Assembly: GCA_020060775.1 (NCBI GenBank)
Contig: JAGUZN010000220.1
Coordinates: forward strand, 984-64,983
DNA: 64,000 bases
Source of the DNA: Armatimonadota bacterium
Lineage (GTDB): Bacteria; Armatimonadota; Hebobacteria; CAIYQO01
Direction: 5' to 3'
The notes beneath the pieces were generated by a model. That model worked only from the letters and a program-made list of their open reading frames with translations. It had not been told where the DNA came from and did no database searches. Each line of letters opens with the position of its first letter. Positions within the stretch are counted from its first letter, which is position 1. A program made the translations under genes and the position numbers. Shown here in pieces: positions 4,389-63,282 of this stretch.

Positions 4389-4390
4389 TT

Positions 4391-7290: not shown

Positions 7291-8298
7291 TTACAGATCA
7301 AGCAATGATGCCGAATTCTCTTGAAACAACACCCCCATGCGGATATACCGCTGCACCATCACATTCGACCGATGACCGGTCTGCTGCATGATAGATCGCT
7401 CGTTTGCACCTGCACGGGCGGCGGCGGTGCAGTGGCCGGCGCGCAGGGAGTGACCGCTGTAGCGTTTCGGATCAAGGCCGATCTCTTTCACCATCTTCTT
7501 GATGAGATTGGCGACGGCACGATCCGATAAGCGCTCACTGCAGAGTTTGTCATGACGGTTGATGCCGCGGAAGAGGGCGCCGCCGGTAATCCCGCTGGAT
7601 TCCAGCCAGGATTTCAAGGCACGCACTGGACAGGTTTCTTCATGAGTGCCAAATGGTATGGCGACCCAACGCCCTTCACCTTCTTGATCTGTTTTTGATC
7701 GGCGGAGGCAGATAACGACTCCTTCCTCCCTGAAGGTCAGGTCGGCGACATCAAAGGCGACCAACTCGGAGCGCCGGAAGGCGCCAGCGTATCCCAGGAG
7801 TAGCAGTGCGCGGTCCCGCCGGCCTTTCAATGTCTCTGGTAATACCGCCATGATGCGTCTCATGTCATCGGTCATCAAGGCATCGACCTGGCGGGCGGTG
7901 ACGCCGATCCGCCGGCGAATGCCGCGCATGACGGCCCGCACGGCGGCGTGTTGGGTGGGGGAGGGGTGGCCAGCGTGTTGGTGGATGGCGCTGATGGCGG
8001 CCATATAGCGCGAGAGCGTGCTGTACTTGTGGTCGGTCGTCGCCATCGCCGTCATGTAGCAGGCAATCGTCTCAGGGCTGGCCGGCATCGACGGCAAGTG
8101 GTATTGTTCGCACCAGGCCACGAACTGCTGCCAATCCCGCTCGTAGGCCTCCCGCGTGTGTTGCGAGATACCTTCCTCGATGAACTCCTGGACTTGCTCG
8201 ATCAGTGGAACGAGAAGGGTGTGATCGGGGTGCTGGTTGGCACTGGGCCCGATCCGGGCAGGCAGTGATGCTGGCTGGGTGATGGGAGCCTGATCCAT
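7291..8298 (-). CDS. Tyrosine recombinase / phage-type integrase (XerC/D-like)
   Basis: N-terminal SAM-like domain (TREAYERDWQQFVAWC). C-terminal catalytic signature RRSELVAF..HSLRAGHCT..TGHRSNVMVQRYIR (R..HxxR..H..Y). Confidence 0.85.
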   Translation of the reverse strand: MDQAPITQPASLPARIGPSANQHPDHTLLVPLIEQVQEFIEEGISQHTREAYERDWQQFVAWCEQYHLPSMPASPETIACYMTAMATTDHKYSTLSRYMAAISAIHQHAGHPSPTQHAAVRAVMRGIRRRIGVTARQVDALMTDDMRRIMAVLPETLKGRRDRALLLLGYAGAFRRSELVAFDVADLTFREEGVVICLRRSKTDQEGEGRWVAIPFGTHEETCPVRALKSWLESSGITGGALFRGINRHDKLCSERLSDRAVANLIKKMVKEIGLDPKRYSGHSLRAGHCTAAARAGANERSIMQQTGHRSNVMVQRYIRMGVLFQENSASLLDL

Positions 8299-9144: not shown

Positions 9145-9939
9145 TTGATTGCGCTTCGAGGCGATACCCGCTTGTTGCCTTTGGTCTCATGGTGGCAGAC
9201 AGAAATCCATACCGTGTTAAGCGACAAGCTGCAAGCGGTGGTGCTGGGCGGCAGCACGGTGCTTGGCGATTTCCAGCCGGGGTGGAGCGATGTCGATGTC
9301 TGCGTGGTGCTGCGTACGCCGATCACGGAAGCCGAAGGCGCTGTTATCGGACAGGTGCACGACGCCATGCGTGCCCACTTCATCGACGGTGGGCAAGATG
9401 GCTGGCGATCAGGTCAGGCCATTGAAGGTGCCTATATCACCGGCGAGATGTTGCAGTATGGACACGCTGGCACCTGTTACGTCGCCGGCGGTAGCACGCG
9501 CTGGTGGGGTGTGAAAGATCCTATTTCGCCGTTCGACCGCCTGATATATGCCCAACACGGTTGCTGGTTGTTTGGTGAAGAAGTGCCTATTGCCCTGCCA
9601 GATGGAAAGGCTTTGCGGGCACAATCTATCCGCGATTCGCAGGAATTCATAAACCCACCAGCCGGGTGCCTGGAATCCGCCATCTGGCTGGCCGGCATCA
9701 TGCACTGGTTGTCCCGCACGCTGGTCTTCTGGCGGGATGGGGAACTGGTATCCAAAACCGCCGCGCTGGAGCGCGAGGTCGCCGCTGGTAGACCGCTGGC
9801 GAGCGCCTTCATCCTGCCCCTGGCCTTGCGGCGGGAGGGGAGTGCAGCGTGCCGGCAGCATGTTGATGATCTTCGGTATAATTACCAGGCGAATCTTGAT
9901 ACGGCTGTGCAGTCATTGGTCGAAGTCGGACTGCTGTAA
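9145..9939 (+). CDS. Nucleotidyltransferase-domain protein (aminoglycoside/small-molecule adenylyltransferase-like)
   Basis: VVLGGSTVLGDFQPGWSDVDVCVVL matches the GS-x(n)-D-x-D polymerase-beta-type NTase motif. The ATG at 9109 lies inside the terminator hairpin, so I moved the start to TTG 9145, 5 nt after AGGGGG. Confidence 0.6.
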   Translation: MIALRGDTRLLPLVSWWQTEIHTVLSDKLQAVVLGGSTVLGDFQPGWSDVDVCVVLRTPITEAEGAVIGQVHDAMRAHFIDGGQDGWRSGQAIEGAYITGEMLQYGHAGTCYVAGGSTRWWGVKDPISPFDRLIYAQHGCWLFGEEVPIALPDGKALRAQSIRDSQEFINPPAGCLESAIWLAGIMHWLSRTLVFWRDGELVSKTAALEREVAAGRPLASAFILPLALRREGSAACRQHVDDLRYNYQANLDTAVQSLVEVGLL

Positions 9940-9951
9940 TAGGGAGGCTAT

Positions 9952-10497
9952 ATGTCCGGATGGATCGAGACTATGAGCAACGTGCAACTGCTACACCCGA
10001 CCACTGATATTGAGCCGGAATACCGGGCGTTCATCGCCGAATTTATCGAGCAGCAGGAGCCAGAGATGTTTTATCGTCTGCCGGGAGACGACTTCGCTGA
10101 ATTCGTGGCGCAGTTGCACCGAGAGGCGCGAGGCGAGGGGCTGCCGGACTGGGCCGTGCCGCAAAATACCCTCTGGGCGGTGCGCGACGCACGGCTGGTT
10201 GGCGTGTTGAAGCTGCGCCATCGCCTCACCCCGGCGCTAGAGAGCCGTGGCGGGCACATCGGCTACTTCGTGCGTCCCTCGGCGCGCGGGCGCGGAATTG
10301 CCACCCGCATGCTGGCGATGGCGCTCGACAAGGCACGAGCCCTTGGCCTCACCCGCGTGCTACTCACCTGCGACATTGACAACCATGCCTCAGCCCGCGT
10401 AATGGTGAAGAACGGCGGCGTGCGCACCACCGACAGCGCGGACCCCGGCACCGGGTTGCCGCTGGCGCGATATTGGATCGATTTGGAGACAAGATGA
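9952..10497 (+). CDS. GNAT-family N-acetyltransferase
   Basis: GHIGYFVRPSARGRGIATRMLAMALDKARALG matches the acetyl-CoA-binding motif A (R/Q-x-x-G-x-G/A). Confidence 0.75.
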   Translation: MSGWIETMSNVQLLHPTTDIEPEYRAFIAEFIEQQEPEMFYRLPGDDFAEFVAQLHREARGEGLPDWAVPQNTLWAVRDARLVGVLKLRHRLTPALESRGGHIGYFVRPSARGRGIATRMLAMALDKARALGLTRVLLTCDIDNHASARVMVKNGGVRTTDSADPGTGLPLARYWIDLETR

Positions 10498-12686: not shown

Positions 12687-14564
12687 ATGGAACGCTTCGC
12701 CCCGTATACCGAGAACATCCTTCGCATTGACCCGGCGCATCATGCGAAAGCTGCCTTGATTACGACCGGGAACCTGGACAACGCGTACCAGGAATACCGC
12801 CGTGATATTCAGCGGCGGACGCTCTGGTTGTGCCAGCACGGCCAGTGCGAACCCCGGTTCTTCGCTGGGGATGACGCTCATGCGCCGGCATGGGCGCCGT
12901 CTGATCGGTGGGTCGCCTATCTCTGCCGGGCGTCCGGCACGACACAACTCTGGGTCGCCCAGTCTGATGGTACGCAACCTCGTCAAGTGACAGCCTGGAT
13001 GCCGGACGAGGATAATGCGTTTCAAGGGGCACTGATCCTATGGACCCCCGATGAGCGCAGCATGGTCTTCACATCATCTACAGGAGATGGCATCCGTATC
13101 ACGGGGGTGGCGGTATCTGGTCGCGATCCATTTGTCGTTGCCGAACTCCCGTCACCGCAAGGCCATTTGTTGGGATGGGACCTCGATGCCACGCGATGCC
13201 TGGTCTCGACGAGAACGAGTATCGTGTCTCTCGCAGTCAAAAGCGGCACCTGCGAGACACGGTGCGCAGAACAGCATGATCATGCCTGGCTCGATCATGC
13301 TGGTGATCTCTGGCTTACCCGGATCATGGATCATGAACTCCATGTTGGCCTGGTTGCCGATGCCGGAATATGCGCATGGCAATGGACATTGCCATTTGAT
13401 ACGGTGGTCGACAACATCTATGCGTTCGATGCGCAACGGCGCGTGGTCTACCTGCTGCGCCATGCAGGAATGATGCGTCAGTTACTGGCATGGCACTTAC
13501 CCACGGGAGTCGTACGTGATTGCACGCCACCTGACACCGTGGTTGCGGCAGAATGTGAACGAGTTCCATCGCCAGCGATATACAGCAACGCTTGCTGGTT
13601 TTTCGCATCGACCTCAGTGCATGCGGCGGAAGTCTACCGCGTGACCCCTGACAGTGTCCCCATGAGAATGACCAGCCGGGTACCACAGATTCAGCCCGCC
13701 ACTCTGCCGGAAAGTCGGCGCATCACCTGGCAGAGTGCGGGGTGGGAGATCGAAGGCATCCTCGTGCTGCCGACCACCCAGCAGGAAGCTGCACCACCGT
13801 ACCCCACTGTCGTGTATTTGCACGGGGGGCCGGAACTTGAGGTGCAATATGCCTTTGAGACGCTGGCCAATCGTCGCGGGCAAAGTGCTGCGTATGACCT
13901 GGCCGCCGCAGGATTTGCCGTACTGTTGCCAAACGTCCGGGGCAGCCGCGGATACGGACGGGCTTTCATGGCCGAACTGGGAGATTACCACCTGTTTGAT
14001 CAGCCGTTCGCCGATGTCATGGCGGGGGTCGATACCTTGGTCGCTTCCGGGATTGCCGACCCGGCACGGTTGGGCATTTATGGATTCAGCTACGGCGCGG
14101 AGCTGGCCCTCTGGGCTATCGGTCACACCTCGCGCTTTGCCGGGGCTGTGGGTATCTGTGGGCGGTATGATCAGGAGCATCTTGCGCGCTGTTCCGGTGC
14201 CCCGTTTCACACCCTGAACGCGACACGATTAGGGGCCGCGGACCCCCAGGAGGTCTGGCAGAAGCCAGAGCTCTGGCAGCACCTGTCACCAATGCACCAT
14301 ATCGATAAGATACAAACGCCCGTGTTGTTAGTGGAAACAGCGGCGGAACGGCGTCCTGGCACGGAAGCGCAACCGCTACTGTCGGCGCTCCTGCAGCAGG
14401 GGGTCGAGTCGCACCTGCGGTATTATCCCGAGGCGTTTCATGGTGGAGGATGGCATCTCGGTTATCAGGAAGACTACTCGCGACGGTTGGTCGCCTGGTT
14501 CCGGCATATCCTGCTGGGGGAAGCATTGCCCGCAAGGTTTAGCGTGCAACAAGAGGGTATGTAA
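12687..14564 (+). CDS. S9-family serine peptidase (prolyl oligopeptidase / acylaminoacyl-peptidase-like) with an N-terminal beta-propeller region
   Basis: Nucleophile elbow GIYGFSYGAELAL (GxSxG) lies in the C-terminal alpha/beta-hydrolase part. VVYLHGGPE is also present. Start is uncertain between 12654 and 12687. Confidence 0.7.
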   Translation: MERFAPYTENILRIDPAHHAKAALITTGNLDNAYQEYRRDIQRRTLWLCQHGQCEPRFFAGDDAHAPAWAPSDRWVAYLCRASGTTQLWVAQSDGTQPRQVTAWMPDEDNAFQGALILWTPDERSMVFTSSTGDGIRITGVAVSGRDPFVVAELPSPQGHLLGWDLDATRCLVSTRTSIVSLAVKSGTCETRCAEQHDHAWLDHAGDLWLTRIMDHELHVGLVADAGICAWQWTLPFDTVVDNIYAFDAQRRVVYLLRHAGMMRQLLAWHLPTGVVRDCTPPDTVVAAECERVPSPAIYSNACWFFASTSVHAAEVYRVTPDSVPMRMTSRVPQIQPATLPESRRITWQSAGWEIEGILVLPTTQQEAAPPYPTVVYLHGGPELEVQYAFETLANRRGQSAAYDLAAAGFAVLLPNVRGSRGYGRAFMAELGDYHLFDQPFADVMAGVDTLVASGIADPARLGIYGFSYGAELALWAIGHTSRFAGAVGICGRYDQEHLARCSGAPFHTLNATRLGAADPQEVWQKPELWQHLSPMHHIDKIQTPVLLVETAAERRPGTEAQPLLSALLQQGVESHLRYYPEAFHGGGWHLGYQEDYSRRLVAWFRHILLGEALPARFSVQQEGM

Positions 14565-33659: not shown

Positions 33660-35342
33660 TTGCACCAAATACACTATTTGTGTGCCATCATGCCGATTAG
33701 GACTGATAATATGAGTTTGTCAACAAAAACTCCTCAAAATCCAGATCTGGCAAATCCTAGCAGTTGCCATTCCAGTTTAGGACCCCTTAGGCTGCCGCAG
33801 TCATTTTATGGCGATGCGTTCACGACGTTTCTATATGGAGCGGCGATATGCTGTATCGTTACGAAGGTCGATGCTGGTTATTCATGGTCTAATTTCGGTC
33901 TGTTGGCAATCATCTATATATTTTTTGATTGGGTTAGCAGAATTCTTTTACCATCATGTTTGCCCAATGACGACTTAGCTGTGAGAAATCGCATATACTT
34001 GAATGTGCTAAAAGCACTACTGGAAGCTGCAGGTTTATACTTGCTTACCGCTTTCCTTCTATCTGTTTTCACAACACCATTATACGGGTTATTTGCAGGA
34101 TTTTTGATCGTCAATTTATTGTGGAATTTGTTGTTGTTGTATATTATGGGTGGCCTTGGATGGAGGGACTTACAAGATGTTTGTTTTAAAGGTAATGGAA
34201 TGGATAACGAAGCTATAGCATTACATTCGTCGACCATTACGGAAATCGAAGCTCTAATAGAGAAGGCTGATATCTCTACTGACAATGCAAACACTAGTAG
34301 TCAAGTCATAAAAACGTATAATAATCACATAAAGCTTCGTAGTAGTATCAATTCAATAGGCGCAATCTACCGGATGCTCATACAATTGTTCGCATTTCAT
34401 GTTCGATATGGATATGTAGTTATTGTAATATTTGTTGCCAAGATGCTATTGGAGAGTACAACGAATACTTGGGGAAGTTTTCTGTTGAAAAAAACATATT
34501 TTTCTGTAGTGCTTGATTTCGCACAAGTCACAACAATGCACATAAGCATTTTTTGTGATAATGGCTATTTGGATGAGATATTTCTTACTGTATTAATATT
34601 AATACTTTGTGGTTTTGTTTTACGCTCTGTTAATATCAGTAATGTTTTTCAGAGTGATTGGTGGAAAAGTTACATTGCTAGTATTAAAGATAAAAACTAT
34701 GAAATGCTTGTCCCGTGGATGAAGATAATATGCAGTGTACCACTTTTCTTTGCTTGTTTGTACATATTATATATAATATGTTTTGTTGTATACACTTATT
34801 ACCCGCAGTTGTTCGCAGGTATTGATAGTGAAGGTGTAGGCATTGGCTTCCCAATCTTACTTTTTATTTATATTTTGTTGTTTTTCATACCTTTCTTATT
34901 TTTTAAATACGCACAACTTAATAAAATTATGAAAAAATCAATTGCTTCAAATGGAGATAACCATAAGAATCACGCCTCTATTTCTTGCTCATGCCCTCCT
35001 TCCAAAATCCAAGGAGAGGAGGAGAATAAAGCGATTGTCATTGAGAATTTACGATTTCAACAGGCTTGTAGAAATGGGTCATTATCACTTTATATCATTC
35101 TATTACTACTTTACTTCGCGTTGCCGATAAAAGACTTTGCAATATTTATTGCATTCCAGCAGGCCTGTGTTACGCTATTCCTATGTATCGCCGTATCTTG
35201 TCCACTTGAACAGAGAGATGAACCTATTGGCAACTTATGTCGAATGAACTCCCCGAGACCGACTTCGTGCCCTCCAAATATTAACGACGGGCTTGATGAT
35301 ACAACATCAGTGACGCCGAAAGAACAGGTAACAAGTTCATAG
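33660..35342 (+). CDS. Polytopic membrane protein of unknown function (about 11 hydrophobic segments)
   Basis: 560-aa ORF in an AT-rich segment (~36-40% GC). Repeated 18-25-residue hydrophobic stretches such as LYGLFAGFLIVNLLWNLLLLYIMGG and IGFPILLFIYILLFFIPFLFF. No family motif recognised and the start is uncertain. Confidence 0.6.
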   Translation: MHQIHYLCAIMPIRTDNMSLSTKTPQNPDLANPSSCHSSLGPLRLPQSFYGDAFTTFLYGAAICCIVTKVDAGYSWSNFGLLAIIYIFFDWVSRILLPSCLPNDDLAVRNRIYLNVLKALLEAAGLYLLTAFLLSVFTTPLYGLFAGFLIVNLLWNLLLLYIMGGLGWRDLQDVCFKGNGMDNEAIALHSSTITEIEALIEKADISTDNANTSSQVIKTYNNHIKLRSSINSIGAIYRMLIQLFAFHVRYGYVVIVIFVAKMLLESTTNTWGSFLLKKTYFSVVLDFAQVTTMHISIFCDNGYLDEIFLTVLILILCGFVLRSVNISNVFQSDWWKSYIASIKDKNYEMLVPWMKIICSVPLFFACLYILYIICFVVYTYYPQLFAGIDSEGVGIGFPILLFIYILLFFIPFLFFKYAQLNKIMKKSIASNGDNHKNHASISCSCPPSKIQGEEENKAIVIENLRFQQACRNGSLSLYIILLLLYFALPIKDFAIFIAFQQACVTLFLCIAVSCPLEQRDEPIGNLCRMNSPRPTSCPPNINDGLDDTTSVTPKEQVTSS

Positions 35343-35384
35343 TTAATGGTATATAAGTGATCATCAGATTGGAGTGACCAAGCG

Positions 35385-36842
35385 ATGTCTATGATTGATC
35401 TAGTCATAATAGGAGTTTATTTGATGGCGTTGTTCTGCTGGGCTATTTATATTGGCCTGCGAGAAAACGCCCAAGATTTTTTGGTTTTCTCGCGGCGTGC
35501 TCCTTTTGTGCTGGTATTGTTTTCTATTGTAGCTACCTGGGTTGGCGTTGGCACGACCGTAGTGACAGCGGCATCGGCATACGAATCCGGTATCTCACTA
35601 GGATTGATCGCCTGCCTTGGGGGCGTGTTGGGGTCTATCGGTGCCGCAATCTTTGCCCCTCGTCTGAAAGCGTTTGGAGACCGTTTCAACGCGCATACCA
35701 TCGGAGACTTCTTCCTGATCCGGTATTCAAACGGTGGACGCTTGATGGCTGGTGCACTGATAACAATCGTCTATTCACTGCTGACCGCCGCGCAACTCGT
35801 AGGGCTTGCAACGCTCTTGAAGGTTTGGACTGGGCTTCCTGTGGAGGTCGTCATCATTTTTGCTGCGTTTTCCACCGTAGCCTATACGGCGTTCGCTGGG
35901 ATCAAAAGCGATTTTTATACCGACATCATACATTTTATAGTTATGGCAATTGTTCTCTTTGTTATCCTATTGCCATTGACACTGGATAAAATTGGCGGAT
36001 TACATGGATTGCTGCGATTACCTCATACTTATTTCGATCCCTTCTCCTACGGAGGGCCAGCTCTATTCATCGCTGGAATGATCTTTGGCGCAGGCAGTGT
36101 TTTCGTGACCATGGAGCTTTGGCAACGCGTCTACGCATCAACAACCGGACGTGCCGCACGTATCTCGCTTGCAGTTGCCATCCTTCTTATCGTTCTCTTT
36201 TACGCGGTATCCACTGTGTTGGGTATGTCAGCAAAGCTACTATTACCGAATCTGCCGAATCGTGATTTTGCCTTGTTTGCGATGATGAAAGAGTATTTAC
36301 CTACAGGTATGCTGGGGCTAGGGATGTCAGGATTCATGGCGATTATTCTGTCTACCTTAAACTCAACACTGATGGTAACCTCTGCGACCTTCACCAAGGA
36401 TTTCTGGTGTGGAGCTCTTAATAAATCCGCTGATGACCAAAAGGCATTGTTATCTGTGGGCCGAATTTCTACATTTGTGAGCGGAGCTATTGGTCTGGGG
36501 ATTGCCTTGATACTACCTGATCTGGTTGCCTTAAGTGTCAATGGCATGTTCATGTTGCTGATCATCCTTCCAGCCATCGCTGGGGGATTCTTCTGGCGAC
36601 GTGCTACTGCCACGGCTGCAACGCTTTCCGTCTTCGCAGGAGCGCTTGTGACAGTGATTTTCTTGAAAATCGATGCTGGTATCGCGTTTGTGCCTGGTTT
36701 TCTCACAAGCCTTCTAGTTTTCGTTATTGGCTCTCTTGTCACTGAGCACTCTATAGAAGAAAATATTGGAGTTGTTTCTATGTGGCGAGGGAAAGCGGAA
36801 ATCCCGTCGATGCATGAAGGAGATGTTCATGACTTACGTTAA
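35385..36842 (+). CDS. Sodium:solute symporter family (SSF) transporter
   Basis: IIGVYLMALFCWAIYIGLRENAQDFLVFSRRAPFVLVLFSIVATWVGVGT is the typical SSF N-terminus. About 13 TM segments. Confidence 0.75.
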   Translation: MSMIDLVIIGVYLMALFCWAIYIGLRENAQDFLVFSRRAPFVLVLFSIVATWVGVGTTVVTAASAYESGISLGLIACLGGVLGSIGAAIFAPRLKAFGDRFNAHTIGDFFLIRYSNGGRLMAGALITIVYSLLTAAQLVGLATLLKVWTGLPVEVVIIFAAFSTVAYTAFAGIKSDFYTDIIHFIVMAIVLFVILLPLTLDKIGGLHGLLRLPHTYFDPFSYGGPALFIAGMIFGAGSVFVTMELWQRVYASTTGRAARISLAVAILLIVLFYAVSTVLGMSAKLLLPNLPNRDFALFAMMKEYLPTGMLGLGMSGFMAIILSTLNSTLMVTSATFTKDFWCGALNKSADDQKALLSVGRISTFVSGAIGLGIALILPDLVALSVNGMFMLLIILPAIAGGFFWRRATATAATLSVFAGALVTVIFLKIDAGIAFVPGFLTSLLVFVIGSLVTEHSIEENIGVVSMWRGKAEIPSMHEGDVHDLR

Positions 36843-37932
36843 TACTGTGGAGCAAGTAAGCGATAAGCTGATGGCTGCTACCGATTCTGCGAATTGTTCT
36901 GCGATGTCAGCCTTACTCCACCAGGTGTGCCAATCGCTTCAAGAGTCTGACGCATCATTCTTGCGTCATTGGTATAATAGTCGGCTTACACGCGCCTGCG
37001 AAAACCCTATGCTTGGCGAAAAAGCCGTTACCATCTTCGCAGATTTGCTAGGAATTACCGTCGAGACGGCACAATGCGTTGAGAAGCCATGGATGCTTCT
37101 ATACATCCATGCACTCTTATTAGATGACATGATTGATTATATCCCTAGAGAAGAATCAAAAAAAGTTCAATCATTATGCAGCGCTTTCGATAGGGAACAC
37201 AATAAAGTATGTGAGCTGCTATTGAATGAAAATTTTGTGGTGTATTCACATCACCATCAGCGCTTCAATGCTGAAGCATGGGCAGCTATAACTTACGAGA
37301 TTGAATGGTCAAAAGGAACTAGATTCACATCACATAATGAAGCGCCACGTCAGCAAGGCCTCAAAGCCGCTCTCGCAAAGTCGTGTGCTACCATGCTTAT
37401 GCTTGCTGAACGTGGTATACCTCTTTCATCAGAACAGGAAGAGGGCATTATTACATTATGCGAAGGTATTCAACTTCTAGACGATTTTGCTGATATGACA
37501 GAAGATTATATGCAAGGACGTATGAATAGGTTGTTGAATACAACATATCGATGGATAAGGAGAAATCTGCCATGCATAGATATAGCTTATCTGGGCAAAT
37601 ACCAGCTACTCGTCTCTGCGATTCTTTCTTCTGCGATTACCTGCACATGGATTGATGCGGCAAATCGATATGAGCAGACATTGCAGATATTTAAACCCTC
37701 TAGTGAGTGCTGGACTGCTCAATATTTTTTGCAACAATCAGTGGAATGTCGACTATGCAGCACTGCATTAACTGATTTACTCACGCAAAATCGTTGCCTG
37801 TTGGATCAACTCATCACAGCTCTGAGTGTGAACGAAGAAGAATTAGCGTGTAAGTTAACAACCGGATGCCTAGCCGGTTTATGGCAAGATATTCGCTATA
37901 TTATTGGGACAGGACCAAAAGCAAGTAATTGA
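36829..37932 (+). CDS. Isoprenoid-synthase-fold protein (polyprenyl synthetase/terpene-synthase-like) with two Asp-rich motifs
   Basis: IHALLLDDMIDY is a first DDxxD motif. CEGIQLLDDFADMTEDY matches the second G-x-x-Q-x-x-DDxxD motif. Start is ATG 36829, 6 nt after GAAGGAG, overlapping the symporter 3' end. Confidence 0.5.
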   Translation: MTYVNTVEQVSDKLMAATDSANCSAMSALLHQVCQSLQESDASFLRHWYNSRLTRACENPMLGEKAVTIFADLLGITVETAQCVEKPWMLLYIHALLLDDMIDYIPREESKKVQSLCSAFDREHNKVCELLLNENFVVYSHHHQRFNAEAWAAITYEIEWSKGTRFTSHNEAPRQQGLKAALAKSCATMLMLAERGIPLSSEQEEGIITLCEGIQLLDDFADMTEDYMQGRMNRLLNTTYRWIRRNLPCIDIAYLGKYQLLVSAILSSAITCTWIDAANRYEQTLQIFKPSSECWTAQYFLQQSVECRLCSTALTDLLTQNRCLLDQLITALSVNEEELACKLTTGCLAGLWQDIRYIIGTGPKASN

Positions 37933-38309: not shown

Positions 38310-39698
38310 ATAACGTAGGATATTTTTCGCACTTTCACCGAGGGGTTGCGGTGTAGCCCTTTCGCTGAGTAGAGTGTAAGCGCCAACTTACCATACTCAC
38401 GAAAGGGACTACACACGATGAACACTACGACAATCACTGGTGAGAGTCAAGCCCAAGCCGGGCTGGTGACGATCAATGAGGGGGAGCTGCGGGCGCATCT
38501 CGACCAGATCGTCACCGGCGCGGTGGAAGAGACGCTGAACCAATTGCTTGACGCGGAAGCGGAGGCGTTGTGCCAGGCGCGACGCTATGAGCGGACGGCG
38601 ACGCGGCAAGATACGCGGGCCGGGCATTACGCGCGTAAGCTCCAGACGCGGGCGGGCGAGGTGACGCTGAAGGTGCCGAAACTGCGGCAGCTGACCTTTG
38701 AGACGGCGATCATCGAGCGCTACCAGCGCCGGGAAGCCTCGGTGGAAGAGGCGCTGATCGAGATGTACCTCGCCGGGGTGAGCGTCCGGCGGGTGGAAGA
38801 CATCACCGAGGCGCTGTGGGGCACGAAGGTGAGCGCCTCGACGGTGAGTGACTTGAATCAGAAGCTCTACCTGCGCCTGGACGACTGGTTGGCCCGTCCG
38901 TTGACCGGGGACTTTGCCTACGTCTATCTGGACGGGCTCTGGCTGAAGAAGAGTTGGGGCGGCGAGGTGCAGACGGTCTCGGTGCTGGTGGCGGTGGGGG
39001 TGAGCGCCGACGGCTACCGGGAGATCCTGGGAGTCGCCGAAGGCATGAAGGAGGATACCGCAAGTTGGCGGGACTTCCTGCGGGGGATGAGGGCGCGGGG
39101 ATTGCAGGGTATCCGGCTGGTGGTCTCCGATTGCTGCCTGGGGCTGGTGGAGGCGCTGGGCGAGGTCTTCCCCGAGGCTGCTTGGCAGCGGTGCGTGGTG
39201 CACTTCTACCGCAATGTGCTGGGACAGGTGCCGCGGGGTAAGAGCCGGGAGGTGGCGACGATGCTGAAGGCGATTCATGCCCAGGAGGATCGCACGGCTG
39301 CCCTGCAGAAAGCAGAGGATGTCGCCGGGAAACTCCGGGGGCTGAAGCTGGAGAAGGCGGCCAAGGTGCTCCAAGCGGGCATCGCCGATACGCTGGCGTA
39401 CTATGCCTTCCCGAGTGAGCACTGGCGGAGTCTGCGTACGAATAATCCGTTGGAACGACTGAATCGAGAGATCCGTCGGCGGACCCGCGTGGTGGGCTGT
39501 TTCCCCGATGGCCGCTCGGCGGTGATGCTGGTGACCGCGCGCCTGCGGTATCTGGCCAGTAAAGACTGGGGGACCAAGCGGTATTTGAACATGCAACGCC
39601 TCTGGGACGCGGCGCCTTCCGGGGAGGAGGGCGCGTAGCGCGGAGGACAATCAGGCGCTCATACTCTACAAAAAGTGCGAAAAACTCTGGACACTACC
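38310..39698 (+). mobile_element. IS256-family insertion sequence (~1.39 kb) with a target-site duplication
   Basis: Single mutator-type transposase gene. Imperfect terminal inverted repeats share a perfect 13-bp core TTTTTCGCACTTT (38323-38335 and the reverse complement of 39672-39684). Flanked by the direct repeat TTTTTGAGG at 38301-38309 and 39699-39707. Confidence 0.85.
38418..39638 (+). CDS. IS256-family (mutator-type) transposase
   Basis: LNQLLDAEAEALCQARRYERT..RAGHYARKLQTRAGEVTLKVPKLR..IERYQRRE..MYLAGVSVRRVEDI..YLDGLWLK matches the canonical IS256 Tnp pattern. Confidence 0.9.
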   Translation: MNTTTITGESQAQAGLVTINEGELRAHLDQIVTGAVEETLNQLLDAEAEALCQARRYERTATRQDTRAGHYARKLQTRAGEVTLKVPKLRQLTFETAIIERYQRREASVEEALIEMYLAGVSVRRVEDITEALWGTKVSASTVSDLNQKLYLRLDDWLARPLTGDFAYVYLDGLWLKKSWGGEVQTVSVLVAVGVSADGYREILGVAEGMKEDTASWRDFLRGMRARGLQGIRLVVSDCCLGLVEALGEVFPEAAWQRCVVHFYRNVLGQVPRGKSREVATMLKAIHAQEDRTAALQKAEDVAGKLRGLKLEKAAKVLQAGIADTLAYYAFPSEHWRSLRTNNPLERLNREIRRRTRVVGCFPDGRSAVMLVTARLRYLASKDWGTKRYLNMQRLWDAAPSGEEGA

Positions 39699-41679: not shown

Positions 41680-41798
41680 GTAATACGGTGACACGTAATA
41701 CGGTGACAGGTTAGTAATACTGTGACAGGTTATGTATTTCGCGTAATACGGTGACAGGTTATGTATTTCGCAATAATAGCTAACCTGTCATCGTATTC
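41680..41798. repeat. Iteron-like array: four direct copies and one inverted copy of GTAATACGGTGACAGGTTA
   Basis: Direct copies lie at 41680-41693 (14 bp), 41695-41713 (19 bp), 41714-41742 and 41743-41771. The last two are a 29-bp tandem pair with one mismatch. An inverted copy TAACCTGTCATCGTATTC lies at 41781-41798. Confidence 0.8.
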
Positions 41799-43604: not shown

Positions 43605-43776
43605 CCTAAAAACTGTTTTGAAAGTCTCTATCCGGTCTCGCTTGATCTTTTCGCGGCGGTCCCTGCCGGGCCTCCTCACCCTATCGGCCCTGGATAGTAC
43701 CTCGTCGTCCCGGCAGGGACCGCCGCGAACATCTACGGCGCGATCCGCGAACAGATCCTTTCAAAACAATTTCTAA
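43605..43776. repeat. 172-bp hairpin-forming, TIR-bounded repeat element, copy 1 (MITE-like or structured RNA)
   Basis: ~85% identical to 62200-62372. Terminal inverted repeats are (G)AAACTGTTTTGAAAG and CTTTCAAAACAATTTC. TAA is present on both flanks. The internal perfect 20-bp stem pairs 43651-43670 with 43709-43728. Confidence 0.8.
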
Positions 43777-44151: not shown

Positions 44152-44484
44152 ATGCCAGGTGGAGATGGAACAGGCCCAGCGGGAGTGGGCCCGATGACGG
44201 GGCGAGGAGCCGGCTACTGCGCCGGCGCCGGTGTTGCGGGAAGCGCATCGCTGATCCCCGGTCGCGGACGCGGCATGGGGCTTGGCCGGGGTTTCGGTCG
44301 TGGCGTGTGTCGCGGTCTCGGATGGATTGGCGTCCTTGCGGCCGGCGGCTTGCTCGCTCGCACATTGTTCGGTTCGGCATCGAGAGCCGATGAAAAGGCC
44401 CTGTTGACCGAACAGGCCAGGAATATGGAAGGCGCGCTCGCCAATATCAAGCAGCGCCTGAGTGAACTTGACAAAGACGAGTGA
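44152..44484 (+). CDS. DUF5320-family protein
   Basis: MPGGDGTGPAGVGPMTGRGAGYCAG N-terminus, a Gly/Arg-rich middle, and a C-terminal coiled coil (LTEQARNMEGALANIKQRLSEL). Confidence 0.7.
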   Translation: MPGGDGTGPAGVGPMTGRGAGYCAGAGVAGSASLIPGRGRGMGLGRGFGRGVCRGLGWIGVLAAGGLLARTLFGSASRADEKALLTEQARNMEGALANIKQRLSELDKDE

Positions 44485-44547
44485 TCCCCGTGCTGCCTGA
44501 CCGGCAGTTCTGGCTGGTCAGGCAGCGTGACACCAGGAGTGCCAGTT

Positions 44548-45393
44548 ATGCGCATCGCCATCGCCAGCGGGAAAGGCGGCACCGGAAAGACCACGGTGGC
44601 CGTCAATCTTGCGCGCATCCTCTGCCGCCGGGAGGCGGTGCAATACGTGGATTGCGATGTCGAGGAACCTAATGGTCATCTTTTCCTCACGCCGTCGATC
44701 ACGCAGACGGCACCGGTGACGATCCCTGTCCCCGACGTGCGCGACGATCGCTGTACGCATTGTGGGGCGTGCAGTCAACTCTGCCAGTATCATGCCATCG
44801 CCGTGCTCAATCACATGACGCTGGTGTTCCCGGAGCTCTGTCACGGCTGCGGCGGGTGCGCCCGCGTCTGCCCGGAGCAGGCCATCAGCGAGGTGGGGCG
44901 TCCCATCGGGGTTGTCGAACGTGGGATGGCCGGCAGCGTGGCGTTTGTGCACGGGCGGCTGAATGTGGGCGAAGCGATGAGCCCGCCGCTGATACGGGCG
45001 GTGCAGGCGTTGGCGGACCCACAGGCGACCGTCATTCTCGATGCGCCGCCGGGTACCTCCTGTCCGGTCATCGCCGCGATTCGCCCGAGCGACGCGGTGG
45101 TGCTGGTCACCGAGCCGACCGCCTTCGGTCTGCATGACCTGACGCTGGCGGTGGAGATGGTGCGCGTGCTCTCTCGTCCCATGGGTGTGGTGCTCAACCG
45201 CGCGGATATGGGTGATGACCGTGTCGAGCAGTTTTGCGCGCGGGAAGGCATTCCCATTTGGGGGCGCATTCCGCATGACCGGCGGATTGCCGAGGCCTAC
45301 TCGCGAGGGGAGATCGCCGTTGATGTCCTTCCGGACACCATACCCTTTTTTGCGGCCGTTATCGATGCCATCCGAAGTGAGGTGCCGGCATGA
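44548..45393 (+). CDS. MinD/Mrp-like P-loop ATPase with a 4Fe-4S ferredoxin-type insert
   Basis: MRIAIASGKGGTGKTTVAVNLA is a deviant Walker A. CTHCGACSQLCQYHAI and CHGCGGCARVCPEQAI are Cys motifs. Confidence 0.8.
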   Translation: MRIAIASGKGGTGKTTVAVNLARILCRREAVQYVDCDVEEPNGHLFLTPSITQTAPVTIPVPDVRDDRCTHCGACSQLCQYHAIAVLNHMTLVFPELCHGCGGCARVCPEQAISEVGRPIGVVERGMAGSVAFVHGRLNVGEAMSPPLIRAVQALADPQATVILDAPPGTSCPVIAAIRPSDAVVLVTEPTAFGLHDLTLAVEMVRVLSRPMGVVLNRADMGDDRVEQFCAREGIPIWGRIPHDRRIAEAYSRGEIAVDVLPDTIPFFAAVIDAIRSEVPA

Positions 45394-46298
45394 GAGAGAT
45401 TGTGATCATCAGCGGCAAGGGGGGCACGGGGAAAACGAGCGTGACGGCAGCCTTTGCCAGTATAGCCCCACGTGCTGTGCTGGTGGACTGCGATGTCGAT
45501 GCCGCCGACCTGCACCTCATTCTCACCCCCACCGTGCAGGAGACGCATGAATTTTATGGCGGCAACACCGCACGCATCGCACAGGAGCGTTGCCGGCGGT
45601 GCGGGATATGCGTTGACGTGTGCCGCTTCGGCGCGGTCTTCACTGACTCTCGTGAGACTGACGATGATCGAGCTGCGGTGTACGCGATCGATCCGATCGC
45701 CTGTGAGGGGTGCGGTGTCTGTGCACATCTGTGTCCCCATCAGGCCATTGCCTTTACCGAGGCCCTCAACGGCCACTGGTTCCACTCTGACACCCGCATG
45801 GGCCCCATGGTGCATGCGCGGCTGGGCGTGGCGGAAGAGAACTCGGGAAAGCTGGTGACGCTCATTCGGCGTGAAGCGCGCGCCCTGGCCGAGGCCCAGG
45901 GGCATGATCTGATCCTGGTGGACGGCCCGCCGGGCATCGGGTGTCCGGTGATCGCTTCACTGTCAGGCGCCGATCACGTGGTGATTGTGACCGAGCCGAC
46001 GGTTTCCGGCAGTCACGATATGGCACGCGTGGTCTCGCTGGCTGCACACTTCAACGTGCCGGCCAGCGTCATCATCAATAAAGCGGATCTCAATCGGGAT
46101 AAAGCCGCGGAGATTGTGCACTATGCACTGGCGCACCGGATCGGCGTACTGGGTGAGATTCCGTATGATTCGGTGATCACGCGCGCGCAACTCGCCGGCC
46201 TCAGTGTGATCGAGTATGGCGATAATCCGGCGAGTGATGCATTGCGCACGATCTGGAGCCGGCTGCAGCAGCATATGGCAACAGAATGTGTTCGATGA
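45390..46298 (+). CDS. MinD/Mrp-like P-loop ATPase with a 4Fe-4S ferredoxin-type insert (paralogue)
   Basis: MREIVIISGKGGTGKTSVTAAFA. CRRCGICVDVCRFGAV and CEGCGVCAHLCPHQAI. ATGA overlap with the upstream gene. Confidence 0.8.
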   Translation: MREIVIISGKGGTGKTSVTAAFASIAPRAVLVDCDVDAADLHLILTPTVQETHEFYGGNTARIAQERCRRCGICVDVCRFGAVFTDSRETDDDRAAVYAIDPIACEGCGVCAHLCPHQAIAFTEALNGHWFHSDTRMGPMVHARLGVAEENSGKLVTLIRREARALAEAQGHDLILVDGPPGIGCPVIASLSGADHVVIVTEPTVSGSHDMARVVSLAAHFNVPASVIINKADLNRDKAAEIVHYALAHRIGVLGEIPYDSVITRAQLAGLSVIEYGDNPASDALRTIWSRLQQHMATECVR

Positions 46299-58631: not shown

Positions 58632-61600
58632 ATGTTTCTCAAACGATTAGAGTTGTACGGATTCAAAACCTTTGCCGACCGCACCGAGCTGGAACTGGGT
58701 CCCGGCATCACGGCGATCGTGGGCCCCAATGGCTCAGGCAAAAGCAATATCAGCGATGCCATCCTCTGGGTGCTCGGCGAGCAAAGCACCAAAGCCCTGC
58801 GCAGCGCGCGGTCGACCGATGTCATCTTCAAGGGGTCGGAGTCGCGCAAGGCGCTGGGCATGGCCGAGGTCAACCTCACGCTCGACAACGAGCACGGCGA
58901 TCTCCCCATCGATTATAACGAGGTCACCGTCACCCGCTGCGTCTTCCGCTCCGGCGAGTCCGAGTACCTGATCAACCGCACCCCGGTGCGCCTGCGCGAT
59001 GTCCATGAACTGTTTATGGACACCGGCATCGGCAAGCACTCGTATTCCATCATCAGCCAGGGTGAAGTGGATGCCGTGCTTTCTTCGCGCTCGGAAGACC
59101 GTCGCGCGCTCTTTGAAGAGGTGGCGGGCATCACGAAGTACAAGCACCGCAAAAAGGAAGCCCTGCGCAAGCTCGAGCAAACACAGCAGAACCTGTTGCG
59201 CGTGAGCGATATCATCAACGAACTGGAATCACAGCTCGAGCCCATGGCCGCGCAATCGGAAAAAGCCAGGCAGTATCAGGTGCTCAACGCCGAACTCACC
59301 GACCTCCACCTTTCGCTGGTCGTCGCACAGTACCAGGGGTTGCAGGGCAGCCTGGCGCGTTCGCGCGAACGGGAAGCCGAACTGCACCAGGAACTCGAGC
59401 AGTTGCGCCATACCCTGCAGCAGGCTGAAGTGAAAGAGACGACCTTGCGCGCCGCGTTGCAGCAACTCGAGGACGAGTTGGAGGAACGGCGCGGCGTGGA
59501 GAATCGCCTGGCGGCAGCCGTGCAGGGCACGGAGAGCAAGCTTGCGTTGCTCAAACAACAGGAAGATGTCGCGCGTAAAGAGTGTGAACGCATTGAGCGC
59601 GAACGCGGCGAGGGCGAGCAACAGGCCGAAGCGCTGCAGTGCGAAATTGACACCGCCGAGCAGGAGCAGGCGCGTTTGCAGGAGATCATCGCCGGCCTCG
59701 AGGGGGAAATCGCCGCGGCGGATGATACGCTGAAAGAGGCCACTGCCGCGGTGGAAGCGGTCGCGCAACAACTCCATGAGCGGCGCGGCGCTTACCTCGA
59801 CGCCCTTGACCAGGTGGCGAAAGTGCGCAATGAACTGGCGCGCCTGGATTCGATGCTGAAAACCTCAGACGGGCGTTTGACGCGCATTGCCGAGGAACGT
59901 CGTGAAGTCGACGGCAAACTCGCTGCCCGGCGAGCAGAGAAGCAGACCGCCGATGCCCGCGTCCACGCGTGTAAAACCGCGCGCGAGTCCCTCATCGCCA
60001 GGCGTAATGAAGTGAATGCTGCCCGCCAGGCTGCCGTGGAACAGCAGGCAGAAGCGCGACAGCAGGAACATCGCCTGCGCGAAGGATTGGCCGGCTTGCG
60101 CGAGCGCCAGCGCACCCTGCAGGAATTGGAAGATTCGCTGGAAGGTTACTTTCCCGGCGTACGCGCGGTGATGGCGGCCGCACAGTCGGGCACGTTGGCC
60201 GGCTGGTATGCGCCGGTTACCGAATTGATCAATGTGCCCGCCGAGCTGGAGACGGCCGCGGAAGTCGCGCTCGGCGCGAATTTACAAGACGTGGTGACCG
60301 ATGGCGAGCAATCCGCGAAAGCGGCGATTTCCCTGCTGAAGCGCGCCAACGCGGGGCGCGCGACGTTCCTGCCGATGGATCTGATCTCCCCCGCTCCCCG
60401 GGCGACCGTGCCGGACATGGATGGCGTACTCGGTCTGTTCATGGATTTAGTGGGCTACGACCACCAGCATGAGCGCGTGGTGCAGCATATTATGGGGCGC
60501 GTGATCGTCGCGCGTGATCTGGATGCCGCGCTCGCCGCCGCCAAATCGCCGCACGCCAGCGGGTGGAATCGCATCGTCACGCTGGAAGGCGAGGTTGTCC
60601 ATCCCTCGCGCGCCATGACCGGTGGTTCGAAGGGACGGGGCAGCGGGCTGCTCACGCGCAAACGCGAACTGCAGGAACTCACCGAGCAACTGGAGACGCT
60701 GGAGCGCAAAGCGCAACAGGCGCACACGCGATATCAGGAGATTACCGCCGAGCTGCAGCGCCTGGAGGGCGAGGTGGTCCGCGTTGCCAAGCAGAGCGAA
60801 CAGGCGGCAGCGCAGCAAGCGGAGGCCGAACGCGCGGTGGCGACCGTGCAGCGCGACGTGCAGGCGCTGGATGAACGCCTCGGCGCTCTCGATGAAGAGA
60901 CCGCGTGGATCACGCGGGAGGTGGAGGAAACCCGCGCCGACCATCAGCGCTTGCTCGAGTCGCTGGCCGAAACCGAGGGACGCCAACGCGAGGCCGAGCA
61001 GGCCATTGCCGAGGCGGAGGGGACACTGGCGGCAGAACAGCGCGAGCGCGATACGGTGACCGAGCGGTTTGCCGCGCTGCGCTTAACACTGACCGAAGTG
61101 CGCGGACAGTGGCAAACCCAGCAGGCGGCAGCACGTCGGGCATCGGAGCAACGCGAAGCCCTGCACCAGCGGCTGCAGCAGCATGACAGCACGACCGCGC
61201 GGTTAGCCGAGGAGATCGCCCAACTGTGCGCGAAGCACACCGACGCCGCGGCTGAACTCGAGCGCCAGCGCGCTGCCCTGCAGAAAAGCGGGACGGATCT
61301 GGAGGGGGCGCGGGGACGGCGCACCGCCATGCTCGAGGCCATCGCCGCCAGCCTGGAAGCGCAGAAGGCCCTGCGCGAACAGGTGGAGGGCTGCCAGGAC
61401 CGCGTGCACCGCACGGATTTGCGCACCACGCAGATCGAGACGGAGCTCGGCTTCCTGGAGACGCAGTTCTTCGAGGATTACCGCCTCACCACCGAACAGG
61501 CGATTGTCCGCGCGAAACCGGTGGAACACCGCGGCGTGGCCATCGCCCGCATGAAGGAATTGCAGGCCGCCGTCGATGAGTTGGGCACCGTCAATTTGGG

Positions 61601-62204
61601 GGCCATCGAGGAGTACGACCGCATCTGCGAGCGCTTATCCTTTCTCACCGCCCAGCGCACTGATCTGGAAGAAGGGCGCGCCAGCCTGCTGAAGGTGATT
61701 GTCGAGATCGACACGACGTGCAAGGAAAAATTCCTCGAGGCCTTTGCCGCGATCGCCCGCGAGTTTCAGGACCTGTTTGCGCAACTCTTCGGCGGCGGCA
61801 CGACGCAACTCACCCTGGAAGACCCGGCGAACGTGTTGGAGAGCGGCATCGAGATTCATGTCACCATCCCGGGAAAGCGCAATCAGCATCTCCTGCAGCT
61901 CTCCGGGGGGGAGCGGGCGCTCACTGCGCTGGCGTTGCTGTTTGCCATGTTGCGCGTGAAGCCCAGCCCCTTCGTGGTGCTCGACGAGATCGACGCGCCT
62001 CTCGACGAAGCCAATGTCGGGCGCTATTGCGATGTACTGCTCGGCTTCACCGACCGCACCCAGTTCCTGGTGGTGACCCACAACAAGGGCACCATGGAGG
62101 CTGCCGACGTCCTGTACGGCGTCACCATGGAAAAGGCCGGGGTGTCCAAGATCATCGGCGTCCGCCTGTCCGACGGCCAGCAGACCCTGCCCGTCACTGC
62201 CTAA
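58632..62204 (+). CDS. smc: Chromosome segregation protein SMC
   Basis: MFLKRLELYGFKTFADRTELELGPGITAIVGPNGSGKSNISDAILWVLGEQS is the Walker A head. Long coiled coils and a hinge (GWYAPVTELINV). C-terminal LSGGERALTALALLFA (signature motif) and FVVLDEIDAPLD (Walker B). Confidence 0.95.
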   Translation: MFLKRLELYGFKTFADRTELELGPGITAIVGPNGSGKSNISDAILWVLGEQSTKALRSARSTDVIFKGSESRKALGMAEVNLTLDNEHGDLPIDYNEVTVTRCVFRSGESEYLINRTPVRLRDVHELFMDTGIGKHSYSIISQGEVDAVLSSRSEDRRALFEEVAGITKYKHRKKEALRKLEQTQQNLLRVSDIINELESQLEPMAAQSEKARQYQVLNAELTDLHLSLVVAQYQGLQGSLARSREREAELHQELEQLRHTLQQAEVKETTLRAALQQLEDELEERRGVENRLAAAVQGTESKLALLKQQEDVARKECERIERERGEGEQQAEALQCEIDTAEQEQARLQEIIAGLEGEIAAADDTLKEATAAVEAVAQQLHERRGAYLDALDQVAKVRNELARLDSMLKTSDGRLTRIAEERREVDGKLAARRAEKQTADARVHACKTARESLIARRNEVNAARQAAVEQQAEARQQEHRLREGLAGLRERQRTLQELEDSLEGYFPGVRAVMAAAQSGTLAGWYAPVTELINVPAELETAAEVALGANLQDVVTDGEQSAKAAISLLKRANAGRATFLPMDLISPAPRATVPDMDGVLGLFMDLVGYDHQHERVVQHIMGRVIVARDLDAALAAAKSPHASGWNRIVTLEGEVVHPSRAMTGGSKGRGSGLLTRKRELQELTEQLETLERKAQQAHTRYQEITAELQRLEGEVVRVAKQSEQAAAQQAEAERAVATVQRDVQALDERLGALDEETAWITREVEETRADHQRLLESLAETEGRQREAEQAIAEAEGTLAAEQRERDTVTERFAALRLTLTEVRGQWQTQQAAARRASEQREALHQRLQQHDSTTARLAEEIAQLCAKHTDAAAELERQRAALQKSGTDLEGARGRRTAMLEAIAASLEAQKALREQVEGCQDRVHRTDLRTTQIETELGFLETQFFEDYRLTTEQAIVRAKPVEHRGVAIARMKELQAAVDELGTVNLGAIEEYDRICERLSFLTAQRTDLEEGRASLLKVIVEIDTTCKEKFLEAFAAIAREFQDLFAQLFGGGTTQLTLEDPANVLESGIEIHVTIPGKRNQHLLQLSGGERALTALALLFAMLRVKPSPFVVLDEIDAPLDEANVGRYCDVLLGFTDRTQFLVVTHNKGTMEAADVLYGVTMEKAGVSKIIGVRLSDGQQTLPVTA

Positions 62205-62372
62205 GAAACTGTTATGAACGTCTCTGTCCGGTCTCGCGTGATCTGTTCGCGCCAGTCCGTATCGGGACTCCTCACCCTATCGGTCTTGGAGAGTACCTCG
62301 GCGTCCCGATACGGACGGCTACGAACATCCACGGCGCGATCCGCGAACAGATCCTTTCACAACAATTTCTAA
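62200..62372. repeat. Hairpin-forming TIR-bounded repeat element, copy 2, abutting the smc stop codon
   Basis: Aligns end to end with 43605-43776. The left flanking TAA (62202-62204) is the smc stop codon, and TAA is repeated at 62370-62372. The central stem 62255-62266 / 62305-62316 differs from copy 1 by three compensated base pairs. Confidence 0.8.
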
Positions 62373-62427: not shown

Positions 62428-63282
62428 CTATACCCGCGCGCCAGCCACCCGCTCGTAGAGCGCCATGAAGCGCCGCCCGTACTCGAGGTAGCTGTCGAAG
62501 AGCAACTGCTCGCGCTCCTCGCCACCGATGTCGCCGGTATGCACCACTGCAGCGATATGCGGTTCGATCGAATACCCGCCGTCATAGCCGTGCTCGAGCA
62601 GGATGCGCACCGAGTCCTCTACGCGGCAACTGCCCTCGCCCGGGTAGGTGAAGATCGGCTTGTGGTCCTCACTCATGTAACCGTCCTTGATGTGGACATG
62701 CACGACGTGATCGATTACTTTACGCAGGTAGTCCTGGGCATCCTGTTGGTGGATGAAGGTATTTCCGGTATCGAACACCAGCTTCAGCGCCGGGCTGTCC
62801 ACCCGCTCCAGCAGTTCCAGCGTGTTCTCCGGCGATTCGCCACCCCAGCCGGTGCAGTTTTCGTGCAGCAGGGTGATGCCGCCATCTTCCGCCATTGTCG
62901 CCAGTTCGCGAATGCGGCGCACCGCTTCATCGCGCCAGGCCTCATCGGACAAGCCATCGTTCTCGAACGACATGATGCGGATGAATGACGTGCCGCTGCG
63001 CTGCATGCGCGGGATCGCCTGGCGCAACTCGTTGACATCCCGTGCGAAATCACCGCTGATCTTGCGGCTCCAGTTCGCCAGCGCTGAGGCAAAGCAGCAG
63101 ATGGTCATCCCGGCTTCCTCGATGGCCTCGAGCGCACGGTCGAAGGTGGCGTCATCGACCAGTGTCGCATTCGTGCCTTCGATCAAACGCAGTTCCAGTT
63201 GTTGCCAGCCCAGTGCCTTGTGCGCGGCGATTTGCTGCGCGACTTTACCGCCGGCTTCATCGGAAATCCCAGTGAAATACAT
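62428..63282 (-). CDS. Sugar phosphate isomerase/epimerase (xylose-isomerase-like TIM barrel)
   Basis: MYFTGISDEAGG..GWQQLELR..ITLLHENCTGWGG..VHVHIKDG..YDGGYSIEPH. Confidence 0.7.
   Translation of the reverse strand: MYFTGISDEAGGKVAQQIAAHKALGWQQLELRLIEGTNATLVDDATFDRALEAIEEAGMTICCFASALANWSRKISGDFARDVNELRQAIPRMQRSGTSFIRIMSFENDGLSDEAWRDEAVRRIRELATMAEDGGITLLHENCTGWGGESPENTLELLERVDSPALKLVFDTGNTFIHQQDAQDYLRKVIDHVVHVHIKDGYMSEDHKPIFTYPGEGSCRVEDSVRILLEHGYDGGYSIEPHIAAVVHTGDIGGEEREQLLFDSYLEYGRRFMALYERVAGARV

Follow-up and report, generated by a model that had tools for sequence, protein, structure and literature searches.

A TAA-flanked foldback MITE family with co-varying arms in an uncultured lineage of Armatimonadota

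Two similar hairpin-forming repeats occur in the window, the stretch of 64,000 nucleotides of Armatimonadota DNA (contig JAGUZN010000220.1) that was analysed here as a whole, and they raise the questions of what kind of element they represent and why their arms stay complementary. An earlier note on this DNA had described them as repeats that align end to end and possess terminal inverted repeats, with TAA on both flanks of each. This description is correct: copies A and B are 86.2% identical over 167 nt by blastn (E 3.7e-46), both are bounded by TAA, and both have terminal inverted repeats, which measure 16-24 bp across the family to which the two copies belong. Their features are as follows:

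43607..43609, no strand: left TAA flank of copy A, preceded by C at 43606
43610..43773, + strand: body of copy A, 164 bp, an imperfect palindrome over its whole length (RNA minimum free energy -83.4 kcal/mol, z -9.2; model R1, 181.6 bits)
43610..43626, + strand: left terminal inverted repeat of copy A, (G)AAACTGTTTTGAAAGTC, pairing with 43756-43773
43650..43729, + strand: central module of copy A, a perfect 21-bp stem (43650-43670 with 43709-43729) around a 38-nt type I tip that contains CCTCACCCTA, a 5-bp mini-stem (43681-43685 with 43693-43697) and CCTCG
43756..43773, - strand: right terminal inverted repeat of copy A, reverse complement GAAATTGTTTTGAAAGGA
43774..43776, no strand: right TAA flank of copy A
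62202..62204, + strand: left TAA flank of copy B, which is the smc stop codon, preceded by C
62205..62369, + strand: body of copy B, 165 bp (RNA minimum free energy -75.0 kcal/mol, z -7.3; model R1, 194.4 bits)
62205..62222, + strand: left terminal inverted repeat of copy B, GAAACTGTTATGAACGTC
62255..62316, + strand: central stem and type I tip of copy B, 14 bp perfect (62255-62268 with 62303-62316)
62352..62369, - strand: right terminal inverted repeat of copy B
62370..62372, no strand: right TAA flank of copy B

The alignment of A and B differs in 25 columns and has a mean column identity of 88% with a few flanking bases included, and the similarity ends exactly at the TAA flanks. The junction of copy A reads TAA/AAACTG instead of TAA/GAAACTG, as the first base of the element, which is G in all other copies, is missing. 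The two copies lie 18.6 kb apart with housekeeping genes such as smc between them, and copy B sits between the convergent smc (+, 58632-62204) and AP_endonuc_2 (-, 62428-63282) genes. Copy A is followed by about 375 bp in which no gene was recognised and then, at 44152-46298, by a DUF5320 gene and two genes for MinD-type P-loop ATPases with inserted 4Fe-4S ferredoxin domains. No third copy, complete or partial, was found in the window, also when the covariance model was run without filters. A weak covariance-model match at 41696-41798 was rejected as a MITE, being a different repeat cluster that is matched by its palindromy. This cluster (41680-41797) consists of four direct repeats of GTAATACGGTGACAGGTTA(TGTATTTCGC) and one inverted copy at 41775-41797 (87-94% complementary); it is located in a low-GC stretch among ORFs without a Pfam match and looks like iterons or an operator array.

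Each copy folds into one long hairpin, and none of 200 shuffles folded as well as either copy A or copy B. Three base pairs of the central stem, for which the earlier note had claimed compensation, are indeed changed on both sides with pairing retained in the central module of copy B relative to copy A (C-G to G-C, G-C to A-U and C-G to U-A). When 24 random substitutions were placed on the fold of copy A, at least three Watson-Crick-compensated pairs arose in 0.4% of 200,000 trials (P ~0.004). Two more pairs are changed on both sides with loss of pairing (U-A to A.C and G-C to A.G), and the same simulation gave 1.1 expected pairs with changes on both sides for the five observed (P 0.0013). The outer part of the central stem, which is perfect over 21 bp in A, is degraded or shifted in B (14 bp), while the outer arms of A and B keep the same bulges and mismatches. 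The compensation signal between A and B is real but not absolute.

The search for further copies that the earlier note had proposed yielded three more full copies (C, D and E) and one truncated end, all in Armatimonadota metagenome contigs, which brings the family to five distinct full copies and a solo end, spread over unrelated loci. A degenerate pattern that matches both terminal repeats, scanned over JGI metagenome contigs, gave 13 loci, 12 of which were chance matches in AT-rich contigs and the real one of which is the contig L014. The species-representative genomes and JGI metagenome contigs that were scanned are sets without the window's own contig, and together they yielded this one extra copy. 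The other copies are in L020, the crcB locus of the metagenome-assembled genome GCA_054642535.1, to which the Logan contig L021 is identical. The newly found features are:

L014 465-626: copy C, in a 1.2-kb contig, flanked by TTT and TCA
L020 7658-7845: body of copy D, TAA on both flanks, fold z -11.1
L020 9815-9977: body of copy E, TAA on both flanks, fold z -12.7
L020 9346-9378: truncated solo end
Element ends: GAAACTGTTTTGAAAG-type

The bodies of the full copies measure 162-188 bp, and all five of these copies form hairpins, with z from -7.3 to -12.7. Terminal inverted repeats of the consensus GAAACTGTTTTGAAAGTC are found on both sides of copies A-D, while copy E has a co-varied pair of ends, GAGTGTGTTTACAAAGCT and AGCTTTGTAAATACACTC, that pairs over 24 bp; the perfect stems of copy E are 24, 15 and 8 bp long. 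Copy C is 93% identical to A in its left 46 nt and about 70% identical in the right arm; its centre is unrelated in sequence to that of A, yet it also forms a hairpin (-76.3 kcal/mol, z -7.4). Copy C is located between crcB and a NiCo riboswitch with its cation-efflux gene. Such nickel/cobalt riboswitches are present upstream of the cation-efflux gene in both lineages, at L014 125-222 (-) and L020 8993-9088 (-), with 44-45 bits against a gathering score of 37, and no fluoride riboswitch was found at permissive thresholds upstream of the neighbouring crcB genes in L014 and L020.

One database entry, on a 65-kb contig, is 100% identical to the window's SMC; beyond it, the SMC proteins of uncultured Armatimonadota are at most 69% identical, and the closest is that of GCA_054642535.1 (69%). 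The CrcB of L014, too, has its closest relative in GCA_054642535.1 (61%). This shared closest relative places L014 and the window in one lineage and possibly in one organism. Other Armatimonadota relatives have no copy at smc or crcB (L002, L017, L018, L022, L023, L025 and L028-L033), and about 370 kb of loci from other relatives are free of copies; the terminal-repeat-like matches in L018 and L025 proved to be a lone motif and a small unrelated hairpin. An exact 20-mer of the right arm matched the 185,579 species-representative genomes once, in a contig of a Nostoc metagenome-assembled genome, by chance. Distant blastn against the plasmid collection and the left-arm pattern against viral contigs gave no match, and the translated-arm peptide pattern GAIREQIL gave no confirmed copy in metagenome contigs. 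Within the sequences covered, the family is confined to one lineage of uncultured Armatimonadota.

Of the five full copies, A, B, D and E have TAA on both flanks, and in each of these four clear cases the left site reads CTAA. With A and T at about 21% each, we calculate the chance of TAA on both sides of a single copy to be about 1e-4. Copy C is the exception, with a right flank that is one substitution from TAA. In copies B and E, the left TAA is also the stop codon of the upstream gene (smc and ORF133, respectively). For copy E, a filled and an empty site can be compared. In L020, copy E, another TAA and 20 nt of spacer separate the end of ORF133 (...D M I TAA) from the ATG of crcB, while in L025 nothing but a 20-nt spacer lies between the orthologous ORF (63% identical, with the same last residue) and the ATG of crcB. 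As removal of copy E and one TAA leaves the 20-nt spacer of L025, the insertion consists of the element plus 3 bp. Likewise, L028 has the convergent smc and AP_endonuc_2 genes in the same order without the element, and L002 has no element after smc.

Other hairpins occupy the same spacers. In L028, an unrelated perfect 28-bp hairpin (13640-13708; GGGACGGATAAGACGGATGGGACCGATG and its complement) stands in the place of the MITE between smc and the AP_endonuc_2 gene, and in L022, from another Armatimonadota metagenome-assembled genome, a different palindromic element of GTGACTAGTGGCTAGTG-type units (9870-10000) fills the same ORF-crcB spacer, which seems to collect hairpin insertions. The solo end of L020 starts exactly where the similarity to L025 ends, after ...GCCTTA, and L020 9343-9378 (compared with L025 8190-8215) consists of TTA followed by GAAACTGTTTCAAAAGG and a small hairpin. 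Given this position at a synteny breakpoint, a former copy may have mediated a deletion or rearrangement.

The small size, the terminal inverted repeats, the fixed 3-bp flank, the dispersed copies and the filled and empty sites identify the repeats as MITEs, the reading that the earlier note had put forward and that now gains copies at unrelated loci, TAA flanks in four of five copies and the comparison of copy E with an orthologous empty site. These results support a MITE family with TAA target duplication at (C)TAA sites, which are often stop codons. Six-frame translations of A and B matched no protein at E <= 1 among 5.8 billion proteins, and the elements thus have no recognisable coding capacity. 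Copy C, however, has no TAA pair, and strict TAA at both ends would by itself also fit an element that ends in TAA and is inserted 3' of TAA. In this G+C-rich genome, TAA is found mostly in stop codons or spacers, so that the copies land directly behind genes, which remain undamaged.

The covariation first noticed in the central stem extends to the new copies. In an alignment of A, B and E, 19 of 55 consensus pairs are changed on both sides and still paired, compared with 6.3 +/- 2.1 pairs when the 3' partners were shuffled (none of 500 shuffles reached 19) and 0-4 pairs when the partners were slid by 1-3 columns. The covariation spans the terminal repeats, the internal stems and the 5-bp mini-stem of the tip, and an alignment of all five copies has the same pattern in the outer arms. 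The arms, which are 62-86% identical between copies, thus stay complementary while they diverge, with both sides changing together. The conserved loop reported by the earlier note is found in part of the family: the type I tip motif CCTCACCCTA ... CCTCG is common to A, B and E, but C and D have an unrelated hairpin tip. The centres of copies of different type are about 49% identical, and by our own estimate chance alone, at 62% identity, would produce a longest exact run of about the 10 nt that match between the loops of A and B and that of E. Each of the two lineages has both types of tip, so that the tip behaves like a module that can be exchanged.

We consider it probable that the two repeats of the window are two copies of one MITE, a non-autonomous DNA transposon about 160-190 bp long. 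A DDE transposase of the IS5 or PIF-Harbinger type, encoded elsewhere in the genome, would mobilise such an element in trans. The whole-length hairpin of the element would follow from its two arms being inverted copies of one transposon end, and complementarity is most likely kept because only those element lineages that retain the foldback continue to transpose, which would be selection on the element. The REPIN proposal invokes the same kind of selection on the element. Templated correction from arm to arm during replication may add to this selection. With read-through from an upstream gene, the 3' untranslated region would gain a long stem-loop.

Subgroups of IS5 make 3-bp TNA duplications. 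Canonical Harbinger elements, which are relatives of the IS5 family, make 3-bp duplications (PMC12730594). A single feature, the TAA duplication, leads us to infer an IS5/Harbinger-type enzyme from the sequence. For the IS5/Harbinger mobilisation that the earlier note had suggested, the 3-bp TAA flanks fit, but neither a parent element nor a matching transposase was found: the 64-kb window and the approximately 370 kb of related loci contain no autonomous element with the ends of the MITE. The paired internal stems also have no explanation in this type of enzyme, as a DDE transposase needs the terminal repeats only. An enzyme that duplicates TA (IS630/mariner) does not fit the right flanks. 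The sole transposase among the scanned ORFs of the window is of the IS256 type and unfit as a mobiliser of the MITE. The gene for this IS256-family (Mutator-type) transposase is located at 38418-39638 (Pfam E 1e-114), in a region of atypical composition, and is unrelated to the hairpin element.

Additional stretches of low GC content were observed in the window. An island of 48-51% GC at 107-8298 looks like a defence cluster. Its products include an ADP-ribosylglycohydrolase-domain protein of 969 aa, a short Argonaute-like protein of 404 aa with a Piwi domain and a protein of 430 aa that has a DpnII/MboI restriction-endonuclease domain; the island also contains a 357-aa ORF without a Pfam match, and a tyrosine integrase (7291-8298, -) follows. 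The lowest GC content (about 40-45%) is found at 33660-37932, where a sodium:solute symporter gene lies between two large ORFs (560 and 388 aa) without a Pfam match.

Why the arms remain paired can also be explained without selection. Quasi-palindrome templated mutagenesis, in which a nascent strand folds back and copies the other arm, is established from studies of E. coli. Under such a process, a change in one arm would be either erased or transferred to the other arm, and the repeats would still be MITEs, with the covariation as an unselected by-product. The five pairs of A and B with changes on both sides where 1.1 are expected, two of them unpaired, are in line with this process, as are the long perfect stems (21 bp in A; 24, 15 and 8 bp in E) and the complete strand symmetry without RNA signals. 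Against it, the bulges and mismatches of the outer arms are common to A and B and have not been perfected, and the central stem of B is decaying rather than being corrected. The excess of unpaired changes on both sides thus hints at templated correction, while the shared bulges and the decaying stem of B hint at selection on the element, and the evidence from five copies is mixed. As the main source of the covariation, templated mutagenesis is in our judgement possible, although we do not think it likely.

A further proposal makes the foldback itself the replicating unit: a hairpin replicator that is long-lived and passed on vertically, much like REPINs, but that inserts between TAA flanks and has terminal repeats and a tip that can be exchanged. 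A dedicated, possibly domesticated transposase that reads structure would have kept it across a family-level divergence of Armatimonadota. We offer this proposal as speculation with a rather low probability; if it is true, bacteria have a second class of persistent hairpin replicators that is independent of the first.

An alternative of low probability is a REPIN-like single-strand hairpin transposon, in which an HUH tyrosine transposase (RAYT or IS200/IS605-like) would act on the foldback formed in single-stranded DNA. The enzyme would cut 3' of TAA at the target and at the end of the element, the apparent duplication would consist of the target and the element's own terminus, and the covariation of the stems would reflect direct selection on the substrate. 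Whole-length hairpins in all five copies and strong covariation that reaches into internal stems, for which a DDE enzyme would have no use, are consistent with such a substrate. So are the lack of strand preference, as expected of a DNA structure, and the presence in A, B, D and E of an invariable TAA rather than a variable TNA. The occurrence of the family in two lineages about 31% apart in SMC protein also recalls the long-lived REPINs (PMC3116915). However, the ends of REP/REPIN and IS200/IS605 elements are subterminal hairpins and lack perfect terminal inverted repeats that extend to the tips, whereas here the tips of the element pair (over 24 bp in E), a GTAG-type REP head is not visible, the length of 160-190 bp is about twice that described for REPINs, and the scanned ORFs of the window, a minority of its ORFs, include no Y1 transposase. 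REP/REPIN membership was rejected because of the TAA flanks, the terminal repeats that reach the tips and the result of this ORF scan.

The structured RNA that the earlier note had entertained lacks support. Such a structured non-coding or cis-regulatory RNA family would be duplicated in the genome and selected for its fold and for a sequence-specific loop. The stems do covary while the loop motif is common to A, B and E, the mini-stem has one compensated change (CUAUC/GAUAG compared with CUAGC/GCUAG), and four of five copies are oriented as their neighbouring genes. Nevertheless, the loop sequences of C and D are unrelated to it, the neighbouring genes are unrelated from copy to copy, and terminal inverted repeats, TAA flanks and orthologous sites that are empty mark insertions rather than a conserved gene. 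Rfam had no match to the window at gathering score, only chance microRNA-like matches (E > 1) around copy A at permissive thresholds and, around D and E, only the NiCo riboswitch, which is located elsewhere. No promoter or intrinsic terminator was found. The minus strand gives the better RNA fold in A, B and D, so that the RNA of the strand opposite to the proposed one is more stable there, while the strands are about equal in C and E; a test of G-U strand asymmetry gave no consistent signal for RNA. Without an Rfam match, a promoter or terminator, or strand asymmetry, an RNA gene is unlikely, and the constraint resembles one on DNA symmetry; we regard the RNA reading as a whole as very improbable. 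That A and B resemble each other by chance or by segmental duplication can virtually be dismissed, for although the window holds only two copies, a similarity of E 3.7e-46 that stops at the TAA flanks excludes a segmental duplication, and related copies at unrelated loci on other contigs dispose of the case, only two copies that lie in a segmental duplication, that the earlier note had named as contrary to its reading.

Returning to the MITE reading, the repeats are a new MITE family of an uncultured Armatimonadota lineage with an unusually strong maintenance of the foldback, and no description of repeat families for Armatimonadota was found in the literature searched. The element can serve as a marker for genome plasticity in this lineage and shows how a TAA-seeking element can settle harmlessly on the stop codons of a G+C-rich genome. 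The position of its truncated copy, at a breakpoint of synteny, is a hint that rearrangements, too, are driven by the family. It is also a further case of strong co-variation of the arms in a mobile foldback. Covariation by itself is often taken to prove that an RNA is functional; here, a transposon gives the same signal.

Like integron attC sites, the copies are imperfect palindromes that lie directly behind stop codons and conserve structure more than sequence. They are not attC sites: the core sites RYYYAAC (R'') and GTTRRRY (R') are absent, the ends reading AAGAAAC and GTTTCTA, and unlike attC sites the copies form no cassette array, with the integrase of the window (7291-8298) 35 kb away.

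The target duplication of Harbinger and Tourist elements is TAA/TWA. With IS5-family insertion sequences and with eukaryotic PIF/Harbinger elements and their Tourist MITEs, the Armatimonadota element shares a T-A-rich duplication of 3 bp (PMC12730594 for the 3 bp) and short terminal inverted repeats; it differs in that neither a transposase nor a full-length partner with matching ends was found in the searched loci, and its site reads CTAA in four of four cases.

Correia/NEMIS of Neisseria and ERIC of enterobacteria are bacterial MITEs that are imperfect palindromes and duplicate TA. The Armatimonadota element is similar to both in being non-coding, 100-200 bp long and intergenic near gene ends, in its terminal inverted repeats and short AT-only target duplication, and in the long hairpin that is possible when it is co-transcribed. 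It differs from both in its host phylum and in its duplication of TAA instead of TA, shares no sequence similarity with them, and is a foldback over its whole length, in which the perfect stems are very long and the tip can be exchanged.

The compensated divergence of the arms is a pattern already described for REPIN hairpin repeats, small mobile palindromes in which compensatory changes across the hairpin have been reported (PMC3116915). Like REPINs (PMC3116915), the Armatimonadota element is small and non-autonomous, its halves are inverted into a hairpin, compensatory changes are common, its ends are more conserved than its spacer, and its lineage may be long-lived. REPINs, which measure about 70-110 bp, are mobilised by RAYT, have a conserved REP head and possess neither a target duplication nor perfect terminal repeats, while the Armatimonadota element is 160-190 bp long, with TAA on both sides and terminal repeats that reach the tips.
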